Both the position numbers and the translations under genes were made by a program. From a virus (Duplodnaviria; Caudoviricetes), in the IMG/VR virus record IMGVR_UViG_3300024283_000007, positions 1 to 44,220 of that record: 44,220 nucleotides of DNA. One strand, given 5' to 3'. Under the pieces are notes generated by a model. The model saw only the letters and a list, made by a program, of their open reading frames with translations, searched no databases and was not told the origin of the DNA. Positions 14,090 to 39,352 of this stretch are shown here, piece after piece; positions within the stretch are counted from its first letter, which is position 1, and every line of letters begins with the position of its first letter.

Positions 14090-14259
14090 GGGCCTAGGCC
14101 CTCCCCTTGGGTGAAAGAGCTGAAGCACTACCACACAACTGTGAGCGCACGCGACAACAGACATTGCAGCATCATGCGCCGCCGTGTTACGGGCATGCTT
14201 GTGTGACTCTGCTGGAGCAAAGTCACACAGCACTACCAGACCCAGTGGAGCAGCAAGAC

Positions 14260-15561
14260 ATGTCCAAGAATCGTGGTAAGCAAGTCACCGGCACGTTGTA
14301 CCGAACTCGGGACGGCAGCTGCAGCGCCCGACTGTCCCTGTCTGCGGGACGCAAGATCGCAGTTCCGCTGGCGCGCAAGCATGGAGACCCCGCGCTCATG
14401 ACAGCGCTCCCAGTGATTGCTGCGTACGCCAGAGAGCTGTCGACACGCGGGGTGCTGACGCCCCGGCAGATAGCAGAGCTGCTCACTGTGGCAGCGTCCC
14501 GGATGCGGGATATCGACGCGAGCATCTACGCACAGAAGTGGGCACAGGTAGCGTCTCAAGACACGCTCTCCAAGCTCATTCCGACTGCTCACGCTGGCGC
14601 CACTTTCCGGGAGATCGCGCAGCTCTGGACGAGTGGCGCCATCCATGCAGAGCACGCTGAAGTGCCACTAGTGAAGCTGGCGCACAGAGACGAAGGCATG
14701 TTCGTGAAGCACGTATATGACTTGGTCGGCAACGTGCCAGTGACGCAGATGACTAAGCGCCAGTTCAGCAGCGTGTATCATGAGCTTGGCAGAAAGGGGC
14801 TGCGTGACGAAACCAGAGTCTATATCTGGAAGCTGATGTATCGGGTGATGCAACTGGCACATGACCCGCTCGAACTGCTGCCGAGCAATCCGATCCCGCG
14901 TGGGAAGAAGCCCGCGATCGAAGACCACCGCCGAACACCCGCACTGCTCCCAGAAGACGATGAGCAGTTGCTAGGCTGTCAGTCAGTGTCGATCCACAAT
15001 CGGATGCTGTGGGGCTTCTTAGCGCGTGAGGGCATGCGCCGGGGTGAAGCTCTCAAGCTCCAGTGGTGTGATGTCACTGCTGCAGTGTTGAATGCGTTCT
15101 CCCAGAAGACTGGGAAAGAGAGCGCACGCATGTGGCAGCACGATACGCACGCCGCACTGGTGGCATACCGTGAGCGCTACTGCGCGGACGCCAAGCCAGC
15201 CGACTACGTGTTCGCGCGCGCGCAGCACATGTCATCTGTCTTCCGCACAGCGCTGAAGCACGCTGGAGTATTCGCGCGCAGACCCGAGCTAGCCATGCAC
15301 TCGAAAGAGCGCGGGGAGCGGCGCCAGATACGTCTGCACGATCTCCGGCGCTTGTTCATCACGCTGGCAGTGGCCTCCGATAAGTCGGACGCATGGATAC
15401 GCACCCGCACTGGACACACTAGCAGCCGCATGATCGTACACTACACAGACTTGGCAGACATGCACCGGTCTCGGGGTCGGGTCACTCTGGTCGCCATGCA
15501 CGTCTCGATCCCTGAACTGCTCACGCCGCTATCTGGACAGTATGAGACAGCAGCAGAATGA
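14260..15561 (+). CDS. int: Tyrosine recombinase / phage integrase
   Basis: 'EGMRRGEA' (R), 'LHDLRR' (HxxR), 'GHTSSRMIVHY' (H,Y); RBS TGGAG before ATG 14260. Confidence 0.9.
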   Translation: MSKNRGKQVTGTLYRTRDGSCSARLSLSAGRKIAVPLARKHGDPALMTALPVIAAYARELSTRGVLTPRQIAELLTVAASRMRDIDASIYAQKWAQVASQDTLSKLIPTAHAGATFREIAQLWTSGAIHAEHAEVPLVKLAHRDEGMFVKHVYDLVGNVPVTQMTKRQFSSVYHELGRKGLRDETRVYIWKLMYRVMQLAHDPLELLPSNPIPRGKKPAIEDHRRTPALLPEDDEQLLGCQSVSIHNRMLWGFLAREGMRRGEALKLQWCDVTAAVLNAFSQKTGKESARMWQHDTHAALVAYRERYCADAKPADYVFARAQHMSSVFRTALKHAGVFARRPELAMHSKERGERRQIRLHDLRRLFITLAVASDKSDAWIRTRTGHTSSRMIVHYTDLADMHRSRGRVTLVAMHVSIPELLTPLSGQYETAAE

Positions 15562-15846
15562 GCCTGTCAGCATTCCGCTTGTTTCAAGCACTATGCTGAC
15601 ACTCGCGTCTGATACTGCCAGAAGCATGAGTGTAATACGTAACGCCACGAAACGATTGATATCACTGTGACGCCGGGGCTGCCAGAGTGCCCAGCAAGCA
15701 CTGCTAGCAGCGTCTAAAGACAGCGTGATGTCTACTGGAAAGCACTGCGCCCCCGCCGGGGTTACCGGCGGGGGCGCTTGACCATCCCAGAAGCATCACG
15801 ACGCGGGCTGCAACGCAGAGCCCCGGCAACGTACACGAGCCCAGCG
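15562..15846. other. Non-coding gap after int; candidate attP with hairpins at 15565-15601 and 15747-15777
   Basis: Adjacent to integrase, AT-richer core; TGTCAGCAT/ATGCTGACA and GCGCCCCCGCCGG/CCGGCGGGGGCGC inverted repeats. Confidence 0.4.
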
Positions 15847-16203
15847 CTACGCGCAACGCTGGCGCAGCAGCGCATCCAGCGCCACTCTGGCGCCAGCGTC
15901 ACCAGCTAGCGCGTCAACGCAGCGCTGAATGAGCGCCACGTCTCCAGCGTGCCCAGCTTCAAGCATGAGCTGCATCAGCTGCGCATCCAGCAGCGCGCGC
16001 GCATGGCTGGCGCCAGAGTGCTGCGCATTCAACGCAGCGTGATGAGCACAGCGTGTGAGCCCCGGCTCTGCTGCAGCTCCACACTGAATGCAGCGCTCCA
16101 TGGCTCTGTAGTGGGCTCGGCGCTCACGAGCGCGCTGGGCTCTTCTGGTCTTGCACGTCTGGCATGGCGTCCCACGCACGCATTGATTGCAGCTGTATGG
16201 CAT
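15847..16203 (-). CDS. Cys-rich (zinc-finger-like) hypothetical protein
   Basis: CNQC, CQTC, CIQC, C-x-HH motifs. Confidence 0.55.
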   Translation of the reverse strand: MPYSCNQCVRGTPCQTCKTRRAQRARERRAHYRAMERCIQCGAAAEPGLTRCAHHAALNAQHSGASHARALLDAQLMQLMLEAGHAGDVALIQRCVDALAGDAGARVALDALLRQRCA

Positions 16204-16218
16204 CTGTACTTTCCGCAG

Positions 16219-16255
16219 CAGCGCCCCCATGCGCGCTGGGCACATGGGGGCGCTG
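16219..16255 (-). repeat. Conserved intergenic hairpin, copy 1
   Basis: 13-bp perfect arms around CGCGCTGGGCA (+ strand). Confidence 0.75.
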
Positions 16256-16273
16256 GGTGGGTGGGTGCTGGGC

Positions 16274-16561
16274 TCAGTCAGTCACCACTTCATGTCCATG
16301 GTAGTGAGCCCAGCCAAGCACTGCATACAGCGCTGGCGTTGCGCGCGGCTTGGCATCCATGAATGAGATCGTCACGCGCAGCTTGGCGCCAAGCTGCTCC
16401 ACTCCACATGGATAACCACGCATCCCATCTGGGTGTCTGGAAGCGTGCGCGCTCCAGTACAATCCATGTCCCTGTGCGGTGGTGAATGGTTCGCCCAGCG
16501 TGGCGCTGATGAATGCCACAGCTTCGGCCATCGGTGTCCATTGGTCTGGCTTCTTACTCAT
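16274..16561 (-). CDS. Hypothetical protein
   Basis: RBS TGGAG; ATGA coupling. Confidence 0.6.
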   Translation of the reverse strand: MSKKPDQWTPMAEAVAFISATLGEPFTTAQGHGLYWSAHASRHPDGMRGYPCGVEQLGAKLRVTISFMDAKPRATPALYAVLGWAHYHGHEVVTD

Positions 16562-16779
16562 GTCACTTGCTCCACACGTATCAGAATCGTCCACTCATCA
16601 CGCTCACCACTGTCTGGGTCATCTACGTGCCCATAGAAGAGCGTGCCAGCTGGCGTAGTCTGCTGCCAGTCACACACAGCTTCCAAGTCATCCAGCGCGC
16701 TGGGTGCGTGCTCCAGTTCGACCACTGCTCCAGCGCGCTCTACAGAGCGCACGATTGCACACTCGACATCGTATCCCAT
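16558..16779 (-). CDS. Small acidic hypothetical protein
   Basis: TGATG coupling to upstream gene; D/E-rich, 73 aa. Confidence 0.6.
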   Translation of the reverse strand: MGYDVECAIVRSVERAGAVVELEHAPSALDDLEAVCDWQQTTPAGTLFYGHVDDPDSGERDEWTILIRVEQVT

Positions 16780-17366
16780 CACACCAGCTCCCACTCGAAG
16801 TCGGCCACACCCATGTGCAAGTCTTCAAGTGGTCCCACTAGCTTGAGCTTGCCAGCTGCAGTCAGCTCACCCAGCGCATACGCCAGCCAGCCAGCTGACA
16901 CATGCTCCAGATGCCAGCGCACGCTTGCTGCTGACATCTTGCGCTTCCCACTGAAGACAGCCAGCACACGCACTGCCAGCGTGCTTAGCTGCGCAGCTGG
17001 AGCTGGTGCTGCTGGCTCTGCGTTGCGTGGAATGGTGATGCGTATGCTGCTCTCACTCAACTGCTCCACGCTGGCACGTGCCACAGCTTCAGCGCGCGCA
17101 GCTCTGATGCCATCGGCGCCGGGGTTCTTCGTTGTGGGAATGGCTGCCACTGCTGCAGCTGCGCGCTTGTTCTTGAGATAGTCCATGGTCTGGAGCTTGG
17201 CAGCGCTGCGCACTATCTCACGTGTGTGCTTCCCATCATTGCGCTCACACACGAACATCAGAGTGCCATCAGAAGTCGAGCGCACTGCTTTCACTTTGAC
17301 TGCTGTCCACTGACTATTGATGCGCGTCAAGACCACTACGCCAATCTGAACTGCTGCTTGCTTCAC
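16779..17366 (-). CDS. Hypothetical protein (beta-rich N-terminus, possible winged-helix C-terminus)
   Basis: GTG after AGTGGAG, directly downstream of repeated promoter A. Confidence 0.6.
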   Translation of the reverse strand: MKQAAVQIGVVVLTRINSQWTAVKVKAVRSTSDGTLMFVCERNDGKHTREIVRSAAKLQTMDYLKNKRAAAAVAAIPTTKNPGADGIRAARAEAVARASVEQLSESSIRITIPRNAEPAAPAPAAQLSTLAVRVLAVFSGKRKMSAASVRWHLEHVSAGWLAYALGELTAAGKLKLVGPLEDLHMGVADFEWELV

Positions 17367-17444
17367 TGCTTCTGCTCCACTGCTTTTCTGCCAGCACGCT
17401 GCTGACACTTCTCAATATGCTCCCACTCTTATGGGACTGCAACG
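17361..17444 (-). promoter_or_regulatory. Repeated sigma70-type promoter + leader, copy A
   Basis: TTGCAG-17nt-CATATT on minus strand; 59 bp identical to 18554-18612. Confidence 0.8.
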
Positions 17445-17481
17445 AGTGTGCAGAGTGTCTCTGTGCACACGTGTCAGACGA

Positions 17482-17520
17482 CCAGACGCCCCCAGCGCGC
17501 TGGGCACTGGGGGCGTCTGG
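17482..17520 (-). repeat. Conserved intergenic hairpin, copy 2 (terminator-like)
   Basis: CCAGACGCCCCCAG / CTGGGGGCGTCTGG arms around CGCGCTGGGCA. Confidence 0.75.
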
Positions 17521-17542
17521 GAGCGCGCTGGGAGCGCTGCGT

Positions 17543-17902
17543 CTAGTACTCTGATGGAACCATCAGCACGCCATCCACCAGCCACAGCTTGAGCTTCCAG
17601 CTGGGTGGGACGTCTGTATATGGTATCTGCTGCATCACCATGTTCAGCTGCCCATTGCCATCATCACAGAAGAGCTGGCAAGAATGGTCAGCACGCACTG
17701 ACAGATGCCACGCTTGAAACTCCAGCTTCTTCACAGCTGGATTACGCTGGTGTGACACGATGGCATCTACCAGCCAGCCACACCCATGCGTAGCCATGAA
17801 TGCCACACCATCAGTCAGCTTGACTGGAGAAGCCCAGTGTCTGTGATACGCAGTGGTGCCACTGAACTGTGCCAAGTCAGACTCTTCAAACTGGATTGTC
17901 AC
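17543..17902 (-). CDS. DUF6876-like protein
   Basis: 'QFSGT..YHRH', 'LTDGV', 'WLVDAI', 'DDGNG', 'IPYTD', C-terminal 'MVPSEY'. Confidence 0.7.
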   Translation of the reverse strand: MTIQFEESDLAQFSGTTAYHRHWASPVKLTDGVAFMATHGCGWLVDAIVSHQRNPAVKKLEFQAWHLSVRADHSCQLFCDDGNGQLNMVMQQIPYTDVPPSWKLKLWLVDGVLMVPSEY

Positions 17903-18099
17903 TTGCGCGCTCCATTCTTCTTACGCTTGTCAAGCTCACGCTTAGCTACTGCACAGACTTCTGGTGTCACTCCATGCACACTGAGTGTCTCTAAGTCATC
18001 ATCATGTAACTGTGTGTAGTCAAGTAGATGCGCTCTAGCGTCGAACGCAGCGTACTTAGCATCGATCTTGGCTTGCTCTTTTTTGCTGGGCTTCTTCAC
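17899..18099 (-). CDS. Small basic hypothetical protein
   Basis: GTGA coupling at both ends; RBS TGGAG. Confidence 0.55.
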   Translation of the reverse strand: MKKPSKKEQAKIDAKYAAFDARAHLLDYTQLHDDDLETLSVHGVTPEVCAVAKRELDKRKKNGARK

Positions 18100-18536
18100 T
18101 TGCACTGCTCCAGCTGCTGGGCTGTGCACAAGTCACCAGCAGCGCGCTTGTACACCAGCGCAGTGGCGCCATCAGCACGCACGCACGTATATTCAAGTTC
18201 ACAGCCCAGTGACTGGCTGGAGCTGATGACTTTGACAGCCACGTGGCTGGTGTGCGTGCCCCCGATGCGTGTCATGTATGTGTGATTCAGCTTGATGTCA
18301 CTGGGCTGCATTGGGTGATAACGCATCACCAGCTTGCCCACATTAGACAGCTTGACAGCCCAGCCATTCTCATCACGCACAACGAAGTTCTCTGCAACGA
18401 AGTGCTTCTCTAGCTCCAGCAGCCCACTGTCTGGGCACGCTGCCACTGCACGCTTGCTGACTGCTGCGCACGCTGCGCGCTTAGTCTTGAAGAGCGTCCA
18501 CTCTGGGTCTAGCGCTGCACTTGGTACTTTCTTCAC
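18096..18536 (-). CDS. Hypothetical protein
   Basis: GTG after AGTGGAG, downstream of repeated promoter B. Confidence 0.6.
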   Translation of the reverse strand: MKKVPSAALDPEWTLFKTKRAACAAVSKRAVAACPDSGLLELEKHFVAENFVVRDENGWAVKLSNVGKLVMRYHPMQPSDIKLNHTYMTRIGGTHTSHVAVKVISSSQSLGCELEYTCVRADGATALVYKRAAGDLCTAQQLEQCK

Positions 18537-18612
18537 TGCTACTGCTCCACTACTTCTGCCAGCACGCTGCTGACACTTCTCAATATGCTCCCACTCTTAT
18601 GGGACTGCAACG
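18531..18612 (-). promoter_or_regulatory. Repeated sigma70-type promoter + leader, copy B
   Basis: TTGCAG-17nt-CATATT; near-identical to copy A. Confidence 0.8.
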
Positions 18613-18660
18613 GGTGTGCGTTCGTGCTACACGGCGCGCCCCCAGCACGCCCCCAGCACG

Positions 18661-18698
18661 CAGAACGCCCCCAGCGCGCTGGGCACTGGGGGCGTCTG
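18661..18698 (-). repeat. Conserved intergenic hairpin, copy 3
   Basis: ACGCCCCCAG-CGCGCTGGGCA-CTGGGGGCGT. Confidence 0.75.
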
Positions 18699-18714
18699 GG
18701 GGCGCTGGGTGGCT

Positions 18715-18936
18715 CTACTTGGCGTCGCGTGGATCGATGCCCACATTGAAGTCGCCCACCCATTCACAAGCTTGCTGGAAGCTGGCAGCAGTAGCCACGC
18801 ATCTGTGCGTGTGCAAGCTCATGATATGGTAAGTGGTCGGTGTGACAGTGCCATCATTGTTCTCGCGTTCTGGCACTGAGACCACTGCGAAGTTCTTCAG
18901 TGTCATGGTGGCTGGCTTGCTGCTGCGCTTCTTCAT
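18715..18936 (-). CDS. Small hypothetical protein, probably leaderless
   Basis: ATG 6 nt after the -10 of promoter C. Confidence 0.6.
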   Translation of the reverse strand: MKKRSSKPATMTLKNFAVVSVPERENNDGTVTPTTYHIMSLHTHRCVATAASFQQACEWVGDFNVGIDPRDAK

Positions 18937-18942
18937 GTTCTC

Positions 18943-18971
18943 AATATGCTCCCATGCTGGGAGCGTTGCAA
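18943..18971 (-). promoter_or_regulatory. Repeated promoter, copy C
   Basis: TTGCAA-17nt-CATATT; shares TGGGAGCATATTGAGAA with copies A/B. Confidence 0.75.
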
Positions 18972-19043
18972 CGGGGAGCAAGTGTGATTGTCGTGCTACA
19001 CGGCGCATCCATTACAGCGCGCTGAGAACGCATCCAGCGCGCT

Positions 19044-19274
19044 TCACTTCCCAGCCAGCAGCAAGTCGAGTGCATCTGGCTGGCGCGCTGCAGCCACGCA
19101 CCCAGCGCGCTCCAGCGCAGCTACGAACGCAGCCCCATGCACTGCAGTGGTGCGCTCTGACAGCGTGAAGACTGGGACGCCATGCTCACGTGCGAAGCGC
19201 AGCACACGCGGCCACGCCATGCCGGTGCACTCCATGCAGTTCTTGCGTGTGATAGTCAGCGGGGTGTGAGTCAT
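19044..19274 (-). CDS. Small hypothetical protein, possible excisionase-like DNA-binding protein
   Basis: 76 aa; last gene of recombination operon; helix-helix-beta pattern only. Confidence 0.4.
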   Translation of the reverse strand: MTHTPLTITRKNCMECTGMAWPRVLRFAREHGVPVFTLSERTTAVHGAAFVAALERAGCVAAARQPDALDLLLAGK

Positions 19275-20458
19275 GGCGCCAGCTCCACAGCTTCCAGTGT
19301 GTTGCGTATGCGTTCGACTAACGTAGTCTCACGCCGCGCAGCGTCTGACTTGAGAGCGCGCGCGAGCCCGACGTCGTCACCGACCAGCGTGACCTTGACG
19401 CTCGCTCGAGTCACCGCCGTGTAGAGCAGACTTCGAGACAGCATGTGCGAGTGGGTCGAGTGACACACCACGATCACGTGCGGGAACTCGGAGCCCTGAG
19501 TCTTGTGGACAGTCAGTGCATAAGCCGGCGCGAGCTGCGCGGCTTCGGAGCGTGCGTACGTCACGAGCCGGCCGAGCTCGACGAACCACACTTCGACTGG
19601 ACCGCCGTCCCCGTCGATCGAGCGGACCACTCCGATCTCGCCGTTCATCACGTCGAGGCCATAGTTGTTCTGCGTCTGGATGACGCGCATCCCGAGTCGC
19701 ACCAGCTTGCCGACGCGGGGCTCACCAGTCTTCGGCACGCGCGAAGCTTCGTTGAGCAGCAAGTCGAGCCCGGCGTTCAGGGAGTCACACCCAGCAGCCC
19801 CGGCGTACTGCGGCGCGAGTACAGTTGCAGTCAGATCACGCGCGACTGCAGCGAACACAGCGTCAGCGATCTGCTTCGCGTCGGGCACTTCGATGCGCTC
19901 GAACGTCGGCTCATTCGTGAGCGCTGGCATCTCGCCCAGCATGATGAGGGGAGCGTTACGCATCACCCAGCTGCCCGAGCCCGCGCGGTGCTGGCGCCTG
20001 AGCCGCGCCACCGGGACGCCGCCCAGGTCGACCAGGTCACCGAACATGCGGCCTGGCCCGACCGGTGGGAGCTGGTCGGCGTCACCGATGAGCATGATGC
20101 GTGACTGACATGCGCCGGCGAACAGCGAGCACGCCAGCGGGTAGTCGATCATCGAAGCTTCGTCGACGAAGACCACCGACTCCGGGAGCGGGTGGTCTTC
20201 GTTGTGGATAAAGCCCTCACGGGTCCAACCGAGCAGCCGGTGGATCGTGCAAGCCTCACGTTCGGTGAGCTGCGCCATGCGTCGCGCTGCCTTCCCGGTG
20301 GGAGCACACAGGCGGTAGGACTCACCGTCCTCATCGGCCTGTTGGATCGCAGCCTTGAGCGTGTGCGTCTTACCCGAGCCCGGCGGCCCGGTCATGATGC
20401 CGAACCGGGTGCGACGCATCATCTCCACTGCTTCACGCTGTGAGTCATCTAGCTCCAT
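19271..20458 (-). CDS. RecD2-like SF1B helicase, motor half only
   Basis: Q motif 'LDDSQREAV', Walker A GPPGSGKT, 'APTGKAA', 'TIHRLL', 'DEASM', 'GDADQLPPVGPG', 'AYALTVHKTQGSEF', 'LLYTAVTRA'. Confidence 0.92.
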   Translation of the reverse strand: MELDDSQREAVEMMRRTRFGIMTGPPGSGKTHTLKAAIQQADEDGESYRLCAPTGKAARRMAQLTEREACTIHRLLGWTREGFIHNEDHPLPESVVFVDEASMIDYPLACSLFAGACQSRIMLIGDADQLPPVGPGRMFGDLVDLGGVPVARLRRQHRAGSGSWVMRNAPLIMLGEMPALTNEPTFERIEVPDAKQIADAVFAAVARDLTATVLAPQYAGAAGCDSLNAGLDLLLNEASRVPKTGEPRVGKLVRLGMRVIQTQNNYGLDVMNGEIGVVRSIDGDGGPVEVWFVELGRLVTYARSEAAQLAPAYALTVHKTQGSEFPHVIVVCHSTHSHMLSRSLLYTAVTRASVKVTLVGDDVGLARALKSDAARRETTLVERIRNTLEAVELAP

Positions 20459-20672
20459 CGTCCAACCTGCTCCCCTCTCCGACTGTGATAGTCAGCTGAC
20501 GCGCGACGTCGGCAGTGATGACAGCTGCGCGGATGAGGCTAACCAGCACCCGCACACCATCACCATCACCAGCGCAGCCCTCGATCAATGCAGCTGCAGT
20601 GCGCAGTCTGCTAGCGCATGCGTTTACTGAGAGGCTTCGTGCGACTGCTGCCATGTCGAACACGTCGGGCAT
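20445..20672 (-). CDS. Small hypothetical protein
   Basis: RBS GGAGG before ATG 20672. Confidence 0.55.
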   Translation of the reverse strand: MPDVFDMAAVARSLSVNACASRLRTAAALIEGCAGDGDGVRVLVSLIRAAVITADVARQLTITVGEGSRLDDGAR

Positions 20673-21094
20673 CGCGGCACCTCCGGTGGAAGAACACAAG
20701 CACACTTATGACAGAGCGGGATGTCACGCCTGAACAGGTATCGATACTCAACACGCTGGCCGACAGGGCGTCTGGAGATGCTGTCTTGCATGCCACCGGT
20801 GATGCCGAAGTCGCAGTACACCGCACGCTTGTGAGCAGCTTGCCCCCATGCGTCCGCGCACTCGAACCCGGTGGAGCGCTCCCCGCCGACGTGGTCTCGG
20901 AGCACTGTCGTGTATTGGATATGCGAAGCGTATGGAGCTTCACCGCGCGTGATCGAGTCGAGCACGCAGCGCTGGGCATACTCACGATTCGACGCTTGTC
21001 GCCACCAGCGCAGCAGCGGCACCAGCAGCCCTGGCATGCTGGGCGGGGGCAAGTATCTGTACGGTGATTCGATGACTACCAGCGGGCGCATCAT
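20624..21094 (-). CDS. DUF7768/DUF4406-like (nucleoside deoxyribosyltransferase-like fold) protein
   Basis: 'VVIESPY', 'RGEAPYASH..Y..VL.D....ER..G', 'VY.D.GITGGM'. Confidence 0.65.
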   Translation of the reverse strand: MMRPLVVIESPYRYLPPPSMPGLLVPLLRWWRQASNREYAQRCVLDSITRGEAPYASHIQYTTVLRDHVGGERSTGFECADAWGQAAHKRAVYCDFGITGGMQDSISRRPVGQRVEYRYLFRRDIPLCHKCACVLPPEVPRCPTCSTWQQSHEASQ

Positions 21095-21336
21095 GTGCCC
21101 CCCGGCGTGAATGCTGGGAAGCACTGAGGCAGTGACGGCAAGTCCGCGCCGAGCTGGATGAGGAAAGCTTCACGCCCTGCCGGCGCATACGCAGCAGCAT
21201 AGTTGATTAGCACCATGCTGACTGCGAGCACGTCTGACGCATGCATCGTTGGGTCGGGCGCCCGATCCACCAGGATGTTCAACGCTGACAGTGATGCGTC
21301 CTTGATTGCTTCCGATCTCTTCTCTTCGTCCGTCAT
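21091..21336 (-). CDS. Small hypothetical protein
   Basis: ATGA coupling at both ends; RBS GGAGG. Confidence 0.6.
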   Translation of the reverse strand: MTDEEKRSEAIKDASLSALNILVDRAPDPTMHASDVLAVSMVLINYAAAYAPAGREAFLIQLGADLPSLPQCFPAFTPGGT

Positions 21337-22241
21337 GATGCAAGCCTCCCTGTGACTAGTTCTGCGACCCGTGCTTCGATGCGGTCCACGACGCGCAGAT
21401 ACACCCGCGCGCCGCGCTTCACGATCACGCCCTCACGCAGCGCCAGCACGATCCCGCTGAGCACTGCTTCTCGGATGACTTCAGGCCCGAGCAGCTCCCG
21501 CACCGCGCGCGAGAAGTAGCCGGGCTGCATGTAGATATGTCCGGCGCCGAAGTGTTCATGCATGGTGTGCTTGATGGCAGCGCGGATGCGCGTCGGCGCG
21601 TCGGGCGGCACACCGGACGCTCGCGCGACATCATCGGCACGCTTCCAGCCGAAGCCGTCAACGTGATCGAACAACTGGTAGGGGTCCGCTTGGATCGCGC
21701 GCACTGCTTCGGCTGCTGACTCCCAGTGCTTCAGGCAGCGTCCGATCTGACTCTCCGTCAGCCCCCAGCCCCGCAGTGTTATCTGTGGCTCGCGGTCGTC
21801 ACGCGCTGCTAGGTAGGCGTCTCGGATGTCCCGAGCTCGAGCGCTGGTGATGCCTGGCACTTCGGTCAGGCGCTCAGGCGCGTCGACCACTGTGCTCCAC
21901 AGCATGTCGACGTCACCACGGAAGTGCTCCAGCAGTGCGGCCGCGCGCCCGCGCCCGACGTTCGGGAACGTGGCTGCGATCCATGCGATGACGCCTTCCT
22001 CAGTGCGCGGGGCTGACACCTGCGCGCGCTGCACGATGAACTGCGCGCCGAATCGTGGGTGCTCTTCATGCCGGCCTGACACTTCGAGCGCATAGCCCTC
22101 GCGAGCGCCAGCGATGACGCCGACGATCGCGAGGACTAGACCAGAGTCATCGACGCGCATGCGGCCGCGCCCCCATGACTTCGTGCCGAACTCACGCCAC
22201 TCGATGAGCGAGCCGCGGAGCTGGAGCACTGCGCTCGACAT
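21333..22241 (-). CDS. RecD2 N-terminal half (OB + HhH domains)
   Basis: 'HPRFGAQF', HhH 'PNVGRGRA' and 'LTEVPGI', 'DPYQL...VDGFGWKRAD', 'RIRAAI......GH'. Confidence 0.85.
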   Translation of the reverse strand: MSSAVLQLRGSLIEWREFGTKSWGRGRMRVDDSGLVLAIVGVIAGAREGYALEVSGRHEEHPRFGAQFIVQRAQVSAPRTEEGVIAWIAATFPNVGRGRAAALLEHFRGDVDMLWSTVVDAPERLTEVPGITSARARDIRDAYLAARDDREPQITLRGWGLTESQIGRCLKHWESAAEAVRAIQADPYQLFDHVDGFGWKRADDVARASGVPPDAPTRIRAAIKHTMHEHFGAGHIYMQPGYFSRAVRELLGPEVIREAVLSGIVLALREGVIVKRGARVYLRVVDRIEARVAELVTGRLAS

Positions 22242-34978: not shown

Positions 34979-35608
34979 CTATGCTACCGGCGCATCGGGC
35001 GGTGTAGCACGTTTCGGATAAGGGCGGCTCGGCAGTGATGCCCGGAGCTCTGGCGCGAGCGGATACAGGTACCGGTGCTTCTGCGCTGCGGGGCGCTTCG
35101 GCAAGTTCGAGTAGTCACGGATCGCGCCGCCCTTGCCGAACGCCCCCGAAGTAATCTCTCGCTGATGACACCAGCGCCCGCGAAAGTAGTATTCGTTCGC
35201 CGCAGCAGTGGTGCCCGAATACACCCAGTTCGTGGCCTGGTAGAGCGTCCCGACGTGGCCCTGGGAGATGTCTGCGAACGAGACCACCAGCCGCAGCCCA
35301 GGGTTCGTGCGCGCGAGCAGCCTCAGTGACACGCTGAGGGCTCGGCTGGTCGGGTGCACCCGTCCCGGCGCCAGCGCCACGCGAACCAGCTCACAGACCT
35401 GCAGGGAGCTGCAGCCGTACGGCGCGCCGAGGTGTGGAGTGGCGCCGCGCCCGTAGATGATCGCACCTACGAACCGGGGGGCTTCCCAGACGCCGTGACA
35501 TATGAGGCGGCCGACTGGCATGCGCGGCGCGTAGTGCCAGCGCTCTGCAGCTCCACGGGCGTCTGCAACCGTGCAGGGCGTCACTTCAAGGTGTGAGGTG
35601 TGGCGCAT
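34979..35608 (-). CDS. Mom-family (GNAT-fold) DNA adenine modification protein, copy 2
   Basis: 'WHY', 'G.IIYG', 'ELVRVAL', 'SRA', 'VVSFAD..QGHVGTLYQATNW.YSG', 'KHRYLYPL', 'PYPK'. Confidence 0.8.
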   Translation of the reverse strand: MRHTSHLEVTPCTVADARGAAERWHYAPRMPVGRLICHGVWEAPRFVGAIIYGRGATPHLGAPYGCSSLQVCELVRVALAPGRVHPTSRALSVSLRLLARTNPGLRLVVSFADISQGHVGTLYQATNWVYSGTTAAANEYYFRGRWCHQREITSGAFGKGGAIRDYSNLPKRPAAQKHRYLYPLAPELRASLPSRPYPKRATPPDAPVA

Positions 35609-36209
35609 GCTTCGGGTACGGCTGCGCGGCTATCACGCGGCGCAGGCGCTCATCGAGAGGGTAAACGTATCGATGCTTCGGGGGCGTGCGGCGCCGGGGC
35701 AAGAGGTTCCACCCGACCACTGCGGGTGAGCCGTCGAGCTGCGGGCCCGACACCACCCGCAGATGCTTCCAGACGCCCTGGTACATGAACTGGTAACTCT
35801 TCGCCGTCTCGCCCGTGTATATCCAGTTCGTGGCCTGATAGAGCGTGCCGACGTGTTGCTGCGCTGTGTCCGCGTATGAGACCACACAGCGCAGCCCAGG
35901 GTTCGTGCGCGCCAGCATCCGCAGAGACACTCCCAGCGCGCGACTCGTCGGGACCTTCCGCCCGGGCGCGAGTGCGATCCGCACCAGCTCGCAGACCTGA
36001 ATGTTCGAGCACCCGAACGGGCGGCCGAGCTCCCGCGCTGCGCCGCGCCCGTAGATGATGACCCCGACCCATGCGCCTGACTCCCAGACGCCGTGACAGA
36101 TGAGCCGCCCGACTGGGATAATGCGCGAGTAGTGCCAGCGCCTCACTGCATCGGTGGCTTCTTTGACGCGACACGGACGGACCTCAAGTCGTAGCCGCAG
36201 CTCGGACAT
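35586..36209 (-). CDS. Mom-family (GNAT-fold) DNA adenine modification protein, copy 1
   Basis: 'WHYS', 'ELVRIAL', 'VVSYAD..Q.HVGTLYQATNWIYTG', 'KHRYVYPL', 'PYPK'; RBS GAAGGAG. Confidence 0.8.
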   Translation of the reverse strand: MSELRLRLEVRPCRVKEATDAVRRWHYSRIIPVGRLICHGVWESGAWVGVIIYGRGAARELGRPFGCSNIQVCELVRIALAPGRKVPTSRALGVSLRMLARTNPGLRCVVSYADTAQQHVGTLYQATNWIYTGETAKSYQFMYQGVWKHLRVVSGPQLDGSPAVVGWNLLPRRRTPPKHRYVYPLDERLRRVIAAQPYPKHAPHLTP

Positions 36210-36691
36210 GAACTGACTCCTTCGACCTCACCGGGTCGGTCTAGACGTGGCGCTGCGTCCTCATCGAGCTTGGTCGCGTCGGGCACAGTCATCAGCCGAT
36301 CCAAGTCAGCGCGCGACCAGCCGGCGATGTGGATGTCAGCTTGATCGAAGCCAGTCAGCAGCGCAGCCAGGTCACCCGTCCACTCTGACAGCTCACCCAG
36401 CCGATTGTCTGACAGCGCCATCAAGTGAGCAGTCTGCTCATCGACATCCATGAGACGCACAGGCACACGCTCCAGCCCGATGAGCAGAGCTGCCTTCCAT
36501 CGCGTGTGCCCAGCGATAATCTCCAGGTTGGCTGCGCGGGCCACGATCGGCGCGCTGAACCCGAACTTGCGTATAGCTGCAGCCACCCGCCGCACAGGCT
36601 CACCATCGTTCGCGCGCGGGTTCTCCGCCCACGGCGTGAGCTTGCTCGGGTCGAGCCATACCGCTGCAGTTGTGTCACTGGTAGTCGTCAT
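36143..36691 (-). CDS. ParB/Srx N-terminal domain protein with C-terminal CPxCG ribbon
   Basis: 'L.PW..NPR.N', 'IRKFGF..PIV', 'IIAGHTRWKAA', 'LSDNRLGE..EW', 'CPSCGY'. Confidence 0.85.
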   Translation of the reverse strand: MTTTSDTTAAVWLDPSKLTPWAENPRANDGEPVRRVAAAIRKFGFSAPIVARAANLEIIAGHTRWKAALLIGLERVPVRLMDVDEQTAHLMALSDNRLGELSEWTGDLAALLTGFDQADIHIAGWSRADLDRLMTVPDATKLDEDAAPRLDRPGEVEGVSSCPSCGYDLRSVRVASKKPPMQ

Positions 36692-36718: not shown

Positions 36719-37141
36719 GTGCCTAAGCCACGGCTGCCAGACTACACGCGTGCGATCCACGACCGGCTGATCGAATACTTCAAGGCCGGCGCGTTCAAGC
36801 GCCACTGCGCGCAAGCGTGTCGGCTCTCCGAAGCGGACCTGGATGCATGGCTCGAGCTCGGGCGCGCTGGGAAGGAGCCGTATGCCACGCTGCTGCGTGA
36901 CGTCGAACAAGCGATCGGTGATGACGCTATTCGTAACCAGCTCACTGTCTCTCGCGCTGCGGCTGGGCAAGGCAATCCGCGCGCGGACGTCCGCGCAGCG
37001 CAGTGGAACCTGGAGCGCAAGCACCCAGACCTGTACGGGCGGCAAGCCACTGAGGTCACGCCGTCAGGCCCGACGCGTCAGCCAGCTCCACCCGATGACG
37101 GCGTGCATGTTCCCAAGTTCAAGCCGTACATCGTGACCTGA
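36719..37141 (+). CDS. Putative terminase small subunit / HTH protein
   Basis: N-terminal HTH-like; 'RAAQWNLERKHPDLYG' motif; upstream of TerL. Confidence 0.55.
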   Translation: MPKPRLPDYTRAIHDRLIEYFKAGAFKRHCAQACRLSEADLDAWLELGRAGKEPYATLLRDVEQAIGDDAIRNQLTVSRAAAGQGNPRADVRAAQWNLERKHPDLYGRQATEVTPSGPTRQPAPPDDGVHVPKFKPYIVT

Positions 37142-37704
37142 TGGCGTCAGCCCTGAATCAAGTAGTCATCCGCTCCGAAGGGCAAGCCCGGTTTCTGCAA
37201 GTGACAGGCTCACTGGCAGCGATCGCAGCGCGCCTGACTATGCGCTCCCCGCAGAGCATCGCTGACTGGCGCTCAGGTCGTAAGGTCCCGAGCCCCGAAG
37301 CGCGCGCGCGCATTGAAGGCGAGTTCGGGATCGACGCTGCGCTGTGGGACGTGCGGGCCGGCGCAGACCCAGCAGACCCCGAAGAGCATGAGGTCGGCGC
37401 CACCTCACTGGATGACTGCATCAACGTACTCAAGACGATCCAGCGTGAGAGCAAGCGTGACGGGCTGCTGGCCGCTGAGCGGGTGAAGCTGGCCGACGCT
37501 GAAGCCCGCATACTCACGCTGCGCGCGCGCCTGGAAGCTGCAGCCGAACTATCAGAAGACCGCTATGTCAGAGACCATCCAGCATTCCGACGATTCTGCG
37601 ATCTTGTGATAGAAGCACTGAGGCCACACCCAGCTGCTGCGAAAGCAGTGCACGAAGCCATTCAACGCGCGATGAGGCAACGTGACGAGGTCGATAGCTC
37701 GTGA
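37141..37704 (+). CDS. XRE-like HTH + helical protein (alternative TerS candidate)
   Basis: 'SPQSIADWRSGRKVPS'; immediately upstream of TerL. Confidence 0.55.
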   Translation: MASALNQVVIRSEGQARFLQVTGSLAAIAARLTMRSPQSIADWRSGRKVPSPEARARIEGEFGIDAALWDVRAGADPADPEEHEVGATSLDDCINVLKTIQRESKRDGLLAAERVKLADAEARILTLRARLEAAAELSEDRYVRDHPAFRRFCDLVIEALRPHPAAAKAVHEAIQRAMRQRDEVDSS

Positions 37705-39352
37705 GCTTGCACTGCGGAAGTCAGCCCCGGCACCGTCCGTGTGGACGTTCCCGGAAGCGTTCGACTTGCGGCTCATCAAGCTGCTCGAAGAGACCTTACA
37801 CATTCAGTTCCCGAGCCCGGTCTTCCAGCAAGACCCGGTCAAGTTCTTCCGTGACATTCTCGGCGTCGCGCCCTGGTCGCGGCAGATCGAGATCATCGAA
37901 GCAGTGCGCGATCACAAGCGTGTCGCAGTGTGCTCAGGCCACAAGGTCTCGAAGTCGCACACTGCTGCAGGCATAGCACTGTGGTTCTACTGTTCGTTCG
38001 AGGACGCCCGCGTCGTACTCACGAGCACCACCTCACGCCAGGTCGACCAGATACTCTGGCGTGAGCTGCGCATGCTGCGCGCTCGAGCTGGGCGGTGTGT
38101 GGAGTGCAAGCTCGAAGACCCGAGCGGGCTCATCATCCCGCGCCCGTGCGAACACTCCACACTGATCGAAGGTGAACAGGGTGAGCTGGCGCGGACGGGG
38201 CTCAAGTCATCTGACTTCCGTGAGGTGGTCGGCTTCACTGCGCGTGAGGCAGAAGCTGTGGCCGGCATCAGCGGGCGCAATCTGCTCTACATCGCAGACG
38301 AAGCTTCGGGCATCGGGGATGAGATATTCGACGCCATCGAGGGCAACCGCGCCGGCGGCGCGCGCCTGGTGATGCTCTCCAACGGCACGCGCAACGAAGG
38401 CGCGTTCTTCGAAGCATTCACTACGAAGTCAGCGTTCTACTTCACGATGCGTGTGTCGTCAGAAGAGACGCCGAACGTGATCGAAGGGCGCGAGGTCATC
38501 CCCGGTCTGGCAACGCGTGAGTGGGTGGAAGAGAAGAAACAAGAGTGGGGCGAAAACAGTCCGCTCTACCTCATACGTGTCAAGGGTCAGCACGCACTGT
38601 CAGAAGAAGCGAAAATCTTCTCGGTGCACATGATCGGCCAAGCCGAAGCACGCTGGGCTGTGACGCCCGACGCAGGGCGCCTGTACATCGGCATCGATCC
38701 AGCTGGTGAGACTGGGCTCGGTGATGACACAGCGTTCGCTGTGCGGCGCGGCATGAAGCTGCTAGCTGTGCGGCGACAGCGCGGGCTGAACGATGAGCAG
38801 CACTTCGTCCAGCTGATGCTGCTGATACAAGAGTTCGCGCTGCCGCGTGAGCTGCCGGTCGTCGTGCTCGACCGCGACGGCCCGATCGGCATGAAGCTCT
38901 CCGCTCATCTGCGCGCGCACGAAGAAGGCGACGCCCGCCGCTTCGAGCTGGTGACAGTCCGCGCAGCTGACAAAGCGATCAGGCAGCCATACATCTACGA
39001 CCGCATGCGTGATGAGCTATGCGCGAACTTGTACGCATGGTTCCGTGACGGCGGCGCCATCGTGGAGGACGTCAAGCTCGAAGCAGAGCTGCACGCCATG
39101 GAGTGGAAGCAAGCTATCACTGGCCGACTCAAGCTCACGCCGAAGGACACGCTGCGGAAGCTGCTAGGCAGGTCACCTGACACTTATGATGCAGTCGCAC
39201 TCTGTGCATGGGAACCACTAAGCATGATGCAAGCCCTCACGACTGATGAACGCGCGAAGCTCGATGCAGCGCTCGCTCCAGCTGCGCCGATGCAGCCGTA
39301 TGCAGAGCAGACGTTCGACCCATTCAGCGGAGGTGAATGGTGGAGGCGCTAA
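37682..39352 (+). CDS. terL: Terminase large subunit
   Basis: Q motif 'WSRQ', Walker A 'SGHKVSKS', Walker B 'IADEAS', 'LSNG', nuclease 'IGIDPA..G..DD', 'GRSPD.YDA'. Confidence 0.9.
   Translation: MTRSIARELALRKSAPAPSVWTFPEAFDLRLIKLLEETLHIQFPSPVFQQDPVKFFRDILGVAPWSRQIEIIEAVRDHKRVAVCSGHKVSKSHTAAGIALWFYCSFEDARVVLTSTTSRQVDQILWRELRMLRARAGRCVECKLEDPSGLIIPRPCEHSTLIEGEQGELARTGLKSSDFREVVGFTAREAEAVAGISGRNLLYIADEASGIGDEIFDAIEGNRAGGARLVMLSNGTRNEGAFFEAFTTKSAFYFTMRVSSEETPNVIEGREVIPGLATREWVEEKKQEWGENSPLYLIRVKGQHALSEEAKIFSVHMIGQAEARWAVTPDAGRLYIGIDPAGETGLGDDTAFAVRRGMKLLAVRRQRGLNDEQHFVQLMLLIQEFALPRELPVVVLDRDGPIGMKLSAHLRAHEEGDARRFELVTVRAADKAIRQPYIYDRMRDELCANLYAWFRDGGAIVEDVKLEAELHAMEWKQAITGRLKLTPKDTLRKLLGRSPDTYDAVALCAWEPLSMMQALTTDERAKLDAALAPAAPMQPYAEQTFDPFSGGEWWRR

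Follow-up and report, generated by a model that had tools for sequence, protein, structure and literature searches.

A small-gene cassette purged of CCT and YCG words in a myophage with ParB-coupled Mom enzymes, and its possible exemption from the phage's own DNA modification

The Mom enzyme of phage Mu produces 6-NcmdA at SAS sequences with Gly-tRNA as donor, R151 being essential and W48 belonging to the dimer (PMC13219725; PDB 8bv8), and ParB proteins activate phage DNA modifiers with trinucleotide preferences, the need for ParB for activity on double-stranded DNA having been demonstrated for dioxygenases alone (PMC13229309). In phage CAjan, DpdA places a 7-deazaguanine modification at GA and GGC (accessible part of PMC7544227), and in T5, T7 and Murciavirus the avoided motif is a long one, belonging to a host Type I restriction-modification system and avoided in the first-injected DNA, as far as the accessible part of that source goes (PMC12455610). 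The stretch analysed here is a complete virus record of 44,220 bases (IMGVR_UViG_3300024283_000007), referred to below as the window, and encodes a soil myophage with an integrase, a split RecD helicase and a primase. At 15566..19392 it contains a zone in which CCT/AGG is nearly absent, YCG/CGR is reduced to about a quarter and CCA/TGG is doubled, and beside its terminase genes it carries a ParB-domain gene and two Mom-family genes. The explanation that we favour on balance is that the zone is a modification-exempt early cassette, kept free of the targets of the phage's own putative modification.

The purge is real and strongly non-random, and it withstands controls for GC, amino acid and codon content. 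As stated in an original prediction made from the sequence alone, the + strand of the zone holds no AGG and a single CCT (at 16471), against about 10 occurrences of the two words in bases 1–600; the recount agreed, giving exactly 10 for the latter. With the remainder of the genome as expectation, AGG/CCT occurs once in the zone where ~78 copies are expected (first-order Markov observed/expected ratio, O/E, 0.01), and CGG/CCG occurs 37 times where 183 are expected. The AGG/CCT-free gap at 16471–19393 measures 2922 bases, the longest gap outside the block being 345, and CCG/CGG is absent between 17120 and 18262, in accordance with the 17125–18260 noted originally. A third purged word, CGA/TCG (55 vs. 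195 expected), had been overlooked, and CCA/TGG reaches 242 against 127 expected. Taken together as CCT + YCG, the purged set counts 70 vs. 311 in the best 3.5-kb segment; TCT, TCA, CCC and RCGY show no depletion in the zone. The earlier statement that CC is almost always followed by A was overstated, the counts over both strands being CCA 242, CCC 115, CCG 37 and CCT 1 (61% A). Of the palindromes in the zone, GATC, GGCC, CCGG and TCGA are low and AGCT, GCGC, CATG and TGCA high, and palindrome frequencies outside valleys showed no relief from avoidance. The GC content of the block is 0.59, against 0.63.

For the codon control, the island proteins were held fixed and codons were redrawn either from genome usage or from the island's own codons. 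The depletion held: AGG/CCT was 1 vs. 55.8 with genome codons (lowest of 600 draws, 43) and 1 vs. 42.9 with island codons (lowest draw, 31), CGG/CCG was 18 vs. 152 or 77, and CGA/TCG was 40 vs. 129 or 75, respectively. All three frames are affected and both strands are low, as originally claimed, with by-strand counts of 1 vs. 24.5 for AGG, 0 vs. 27.4 for CCT, 4 vs. 81.5 for CGG, 10 vs. 56.3 for CCG, 21 vs. 62.5 for CGA and 15 vs. 58.3 for TCG. The reported shift in Shine-Dalgarno sites was likewise confirmed, AGGAG being absent from the island (4.2 expected) and TGGAG present 25 times (10.8 expected), with TGGAG or GGGAG upstream of most of the island starts inspected. Among 24 variant bases found in other runs, 3 create a purged word (7.9 expected) and none creates AGG/CCT (3.1 expected), which lends weak support to avoidance. 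A local mutational process, for instance excess modification or deamination in a strongly transcribed block, might erode these words without selection; the smooth shape of the valley and the gains of CTG, CTT, TTG and CCA, which partly fit C-to-T change, speak for it. Such a process appears quite unlikely, however, given that one of ~78 AGG/CCT remains, that Shine-Dalgarno sites have been rewritten, that both strands are affected equally, that CCG and TCG are not lost genome-wide (O/E 1.04 and 1.07) and that TCA/TGA barely gains. Toxins that cut mRNA and blocks acting on the template strand only were rejected, as the purge extends to both strands. A CRISPR protospacer-adjacent motif is also a poor fit, as TGG and GGG are kept.

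The edges of the zone were said to fade on both sides. This stands for the tyrosine integrase (14107..15561, + strand, probable start 14263), which is partly depleted with 8 AGG/CCT vs. 26.5 expected, but not for the 3' end of the RecD-like helicase gene (19271..20458, − strand), which forms the right boundary and where counts are normal from about 19300–19400, without a long fade. These edges bear on whether the block is a foreign insert that retains the genome-wide bias of a donor. The slightly lower GC content and the mobility of the cassette genes among relatives would agree with an insert, but orthologues of two window genes in a related genome (G002; relatives are referred to by such labels) lie in AGG-rich DNA (49, 71 and 27 per kb), the edges cut through the native integrase, and the lowest genome-wide AGG O/E among 31 genomes was 0.49. 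The insert is largely refuted and barely credible, whilst the position-dependent selection proposed originally is supported. Genome-wide biases do vary among relatives (CAG O/E 0.35–1.15, AGG 0.49–1.35, CCGG 0.29–1.39), and may perhaps be host signatures.

The modifier operon is headed by a ParB N-terminal-domain protein (36143..36691, − strand; longest open reading frame, ORF, to 37045), with 57% identity to the ParB domain of a fusion protein in relative G067. It is followed by two Mom-family GNAT genes on the same strand, one with a divergent insertion (35586..36209; PF25680 E 3e-40, and alignment) and a second that is 56% identical to it (34979..35608; PF25680 E 8e-39). The three genes adjoin the terminase region at 37141–39352, which is the layout of ParB-terminase modification loci. 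Both Mom proteins match PF25680 above cut-off, are homologous to the Mu Mom structure and, aligned against 8bv8, keep seven of the nine Mu residues checked (H58, Y59, R111, S124, D149, Y159 and W181); the position of R151 holds Ala or Ser, and W48 is absent. Most of 80 Mom loci (L165–L244) likewise have a ParB gene immediately upstream of Mom, and in phage Appa the ParB-Mom pair is followed by a tRNA-Gly, which fits the Gly-tRNA donor.

The comparison with related phages covered the window and 35 rebuilt related records, all scanned alike, of which 30 came from the best 80 of 123 terminase matches and 5 from later scans. Valleys of word depletion were found in 5 of the 36 genomes, with log10 p of −32.7 in the window, −23.0 in G067, and −20.6, −16.9 and −12.5 in G068, G015 and G019; the remaining 31 went no lower than −9.5. 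The depleted word is CC/GG in G067 (114 vs. 257) and GCC/GGC in G068 (20 vs. 97), G015 (30 vs. 104) and G019 (71 vs. 151). All five are among the nine genomes with a ParB-coupled modifier, and none is among the 27 without (Fisher p 3e-4), G013, whose ParB has a helix-turn-helix, being counted with the latter; by lineage the ratio is 3/7 vs. 0/25 (p 0.007). A connection with modification by the phage itself had been listed as a mere alternative; it is supported by valleys that occur only with ParB-coupled modifiers and by a word that differs with the enzyme. The original interpretation as a whole was partly supported. In a tree of TerL, portal and sheath proteins the three valley lineages are separate and do not form one clade; G011, the sister of the window, has no valley, and G002, the sister of G067, has a weak dip only.

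The modifiers themselves differ between these lineages. No Mom was found in the 30 terminase-found records by the family search, nor in the 5 later records by tblastn, and one Mom-bearing sister strain that does not include this region was left out of the counts. Genomes G015, G019 and G068 form one lineage (G015 and G019 being 81% alike) with a ParB-methyltransferase fusion bearing an SPPY motif. G067 has the same fusion at 54%, with a pyridoxal-phosphate (PLP) enzyme beside it, and this enzyme is also present in G019 and G068 but was not found in G015. The pairing of the ParB-methyltransferase (SPPY) with a PALP-family PLP enzyme, seen in G067, G019, G068 and G077 (L362:67-2413; L386:8230-10885), is a candidate for an undescribed base-hypermodification pathway. 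TET/JBP was found in 0 of the 36 genomes, and in a fragmentary relative (L015:1917-3444) a C5-methyltransferase-like ORF comes after a ParB gene next to the terminase.

The word appears to follow the enzyme more than the cargo. CCT + YCG is purged with ParB and two Mom enzymes, and GCC or CC with the ParB-methyltransferase. Three window cassette genes have homologues in G067, which stand behind TTGACG-17-type repeats in a cassette that sits between primase and terminase rather than beside the integrase and is purged all the same. This cassette retains CGA/TCG (O/E 1.24, or 1.35 when proteins are fixed) but has lost CCA (11 vs. 32) along with all CC words, the reverse of the window, where YCG and CCT are lost and CCA gained. 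Conversely, a similar enzyme (54%) with another cassette at another map position goes with an overlapping word, CC in G067 and GCC>ACC in G015, G019 and G068. A further genome, G077, was found solely by its methyltransferase domain (55%), and a prediction was written before it was scanned. A ParB-PLP enzyme-ParB-methyltransferase operon is present, and small genes with repeated promoter-like elements lie under a valley at 34.6–38.1 kb (22 vs. 93, log10 p −18.0), bringing this enzyme subfamily to a valley in 5 of 5 genomes.

The valleys are also positioned with respect to promoter-like elements, of which the block holds three copies (TTGCAR-17-CATATT) together with three hairpin repeats. P1 (18938..18975, − strand; TTGCAA-17-CATATT with an inverted repeat in the spacer) was detected as repeat family D2 and by pattern scan, and is missing from the stock promoter scan output. 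P2 (TTGCAG-17-CATATT) and P3 lie in the two copies of a 66-bp direct repeat (18554..18619 and 17386..17451, both − strand, from the repeat and pattern scans). From their sequence, the three are presumed to act as sigma-70-type promoters, and the GC-rich hairpin repeats upstream of promoters (17486..17526, with copies at 16222–16262 and 18665–18705) are likely terminators. The depletion profiles start within ~500 bases of a promoter-like site, with recovery in the next 2 kb or so downstream, and in G067 CC-rich DNA stops sharply, a few dozen bases short of the first −35 box. A parS-type point source (AGCGCGCT, 10 of 12 copies in the block) was not retained, since the valleys have promoters as their anchor and its words follow from the hairpin repeats. 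G006 offers a natural control, with seven repeated TTGAC-type promoter elements (C1:13681-15818), no ParB modifier and no valley. A search with the 17-base promoter pattern gave 6 unrelated loci. In one public run, a variant is present without the 1168 bases between the 66-bp repeats (window 17386–18619; DUF6876 and two small genes), so that recombination between the repeats would allow the cassette to gain and lose units.

Under the favoured explanation, the ParB-coupled Mom enzymes would modify CCT and YCG words late in infection, the two copies accounting for the two words, and this would shield the remainder of the genome from host nucleases. Virion DNA would then enter marked, and the cassette would have to work before replication dilutes the marks. 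The words are likely to have been stripped from the cassette because the phage's own enzymes would mark them and the cassette must be read unmarked. Harm would arise through transcription by host RNA polymerase or through repair-coupled consequences, until a phage factor or replication brings relief, transcription by the host polymerase being the likeliest step at stake.

A number of observations weigh against this explanation. Across genomes, four of the nine with a modifier have no clear valley: G004, with a methyltransferase of another type, and G002, G029 and G071, with a ParB-like protein and a TET-associated glycosyltransferase (TAGT)-type enzyme (confirmed through Pfam in G029 and G071 and recognised through sequence similarity in G002; no TET/JBP was detected), the loci of the latter being L163:14035-15625, L371:12629-14184 and L108:1556-3501 for G029, G071 and G002. 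Apart from G077, genomes were grouped by modifier when their valleys had already been seen, and the purged word of G077 proved to be GAC/GTC, the predicted CC-type word being wrong. No early-cassette valley was found in 17 Mom-carrying records outside the family (3 cultured and 14 uncultured, several partial), the lowest values, −14.9 in G060 and −10.7 in G059, lying inside tail-like genes of biased composition. Mu shows no purge (SAS O/E 0.87–0.97 over the first 6 kb), CAjan has no valley below −6.9 for GA/GGC, and the distant ParB-methyltransferase records G072–G075 gave 0 of 4 valleys; G076 also has none. The idea that Mom alone causes a valley thus failed; a modifier by itself is insufficient, and the mark or the host must matter. 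Within the window, Mu-type SAS words are not purged from the block, and CCG/CGG contains no adenine whereas Mu Mom modifies adenine, so that a Mom copy writing there would have to act on cytosine or guanine. The AGG-free stretch reaches about 400 bases upstream of P1, both strands are purged, with a template bias that is slight and varies in direction, and the repressor, primase and recombination genes, also needed early, show no purge. Finally, C5 and C7 major-groove marks block initiation and not elongation in vitro (accessible part of PMC4838386).

Because of this initiation-only block, the two-strand purge and the unpurged early-needed genes, a host modification-dependent nuclease or glycosylase is a serious rival agent. 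The words would still be the phage's own modification targets, and the cassette would have to escape until its would-be inhibitors were made. Strand symmetry, the reach upstream of P1 and the lack of a purge in Mu, in CAjan and in further Mom phages, which have different hosts, would all be explained; we nevertheless hold it to be rather unlikely, as cutting would also hit the other 90% of the genome, where the words keep their normal frequency, the gradient has the promoter as its anchor and no island protein except DUF6876 matched a known family. It is also possible, though unlikely, that a host defence reads the unmodified words, as the original prediction proposed, with the modifier shielding the genome elsewhere or merely accompanying such hosts and the cassette exposed. 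Different hosts could then give different words, including GAC/GTC in G077, but none of the 27 modifier-less family genomes has a valley, G006 included, the trinucleotides are depleted whatever their context, AGCT, GCGC, CATG and TGCA being enriched, and nothing explains why this block alone should be exposed.

The block was further proposed to be the first-entering DNA, as in T5/T7, or a collapsed long terminal repeat. Repeated promoters and small genes of an early type would suit this, motif avoidance in leading regions is already known (accessible part of PMC12455610), and the virion ends of the window are judged from relatives. Among 80 terminase loci, however, 45 end 0.5–2.6 kb upstream of TerL, with 6 ending closer upstream, 15 uncut there and 3 ending 0.5–2.6 kb downstream, and the contigs of the valley-bearing G015 and G019 end 1.7–1.8 kb upstream. 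The virion end of the window therefore probably lies beside the terminase, 0.7–2.6 kb upstream of the large subunit gene (37682..39352, + strand) to judge from relatives' contigs, and at least 15 kb from the block. Depth was flat rather than doubled, at 38 for a contig wholly inside the block (17492–18583) and 37.2 on the flanks (18584–18670 uncovered), as measured from contigs of one deep run, possibly the source of the window. As the cassette also sits elsewhere in G067, this reading is very unlikely.

The block comprises nine small − strand ORFs, of which the DUF6876 protein alone can be named, and its genes are likely early or first-expressed to judge from their layout. From the left, these are a small Cys-rich ORF (15847..16200), the G067 counterpart of which has homologues in G029, G028 and G077; a small ORF sharing 65% identity with a gene of G002 whose region is not purged (16274..16564); a small ORF of no family (16558..16794); a ~200-aa ORF of no named family with 44–46% identity to a gene in the CC-purged G067 cassette (16779..17408); the DUF6876 protein (17543..17902), with homologues in G002 (47%) and G071 (38%); a small basic ORF (17899..18129) and a 146-aa ORF (18096..18536), both of no family; a 73-aa ORF that is the first gene behind P1 (18715..18936) and is homologous to a purged-cassette gene of G067 that has a further match within the valley of G068; and a 76-aa ORF (19044..19274) that lies after the helicase and upstream of P1, still inside the AGG-free stretch. 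PHROG, Pfam and PADLOC gave no match for the island proteins except DUF6876 (Pfam), an Atlas search of them gave DUF6876 only, the 200-aa protein having no hit that reached 0.9, and Rfam and tRNA scans gave no match. Single-protein scans with helicase and integrase returned one 92%-identical strain, whose contig ends inside the integrase and is thus uninformative on the block. The RecD2-like helicase (window 19271–22241) is split into two genes family-wide, often with a DUF7768 protein or other small genes between or beside the halves. Microbial assemblies contained 12 terminase relatives, 7 of them under the labels Sandaracinus, Polyangiaceae or Chondromyces, 2 under delta proteobacterium and 3 under other phyla, so a host among the Polyangiales is likely.

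If the favoured explanation is true, the cost of DNA hypermodification is written into the genome layout, the armour being left off the first-used genes, and purged blocks would predict the target words of uncharacterised modifiers: CCT/AGG and YCG for the two Mom copies, and GCC, CC and GAC/GTC for the ParB-methyltransferase with PLP enzyme. More tentatively, a swappable ParB-coupled writer may be paired with an exempt early cassette that is re-spelled at each change of writer, its target readable from sequence, and the two Mom-like enzymes of the window would then write different words, one or both of them acting on cytosine (or guanine) in YCG rather than on adenine, which would be an undescribed DNA modification. 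The literature searched, with most subscription journals outside it, yielded no early cassette from which the word modified by the phage itself had been purged; the closest precedent is first-injected DNA that avoids the restriction sites of the host (PMC12455610).

Compared with Mu Mom, the Mom proteins of the window have the PF25680 fold and seven residue equivalents in common, but are present as two copies in a ParB operon, do not keep R151 and W48, and go with purged words that are not SAS; Mu itself, unlike the window, has no SAS purge. In ParB-terminase loci and ParB-dependent phage dioxygenases, as in the window, a ParB-domain protein adjoins a post-replicative modifier, or is fused to it, close to the terminase, with short-word specificity as would apply here; the accessible parts of these sources mention neither a target-free zone nor a ParB-Mom partnership (PMC4738411; PMC13229309; PMC12704722). 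CAjan DpdA resembles the window in its phage-encoded mark at 2-3-base words, two words per phage (accessible part of PMC7544227), and CAjan differs in having no purged block. The leading regions of T5/T7 and Murciavirus are alike in that motif avoidance is confined to a small early-gene block (accessible part of PMC12455610), whereas in the window it concerns trinucleotides, lies mid-genome, moves with the cassette and is tied to the phage's own modifier.

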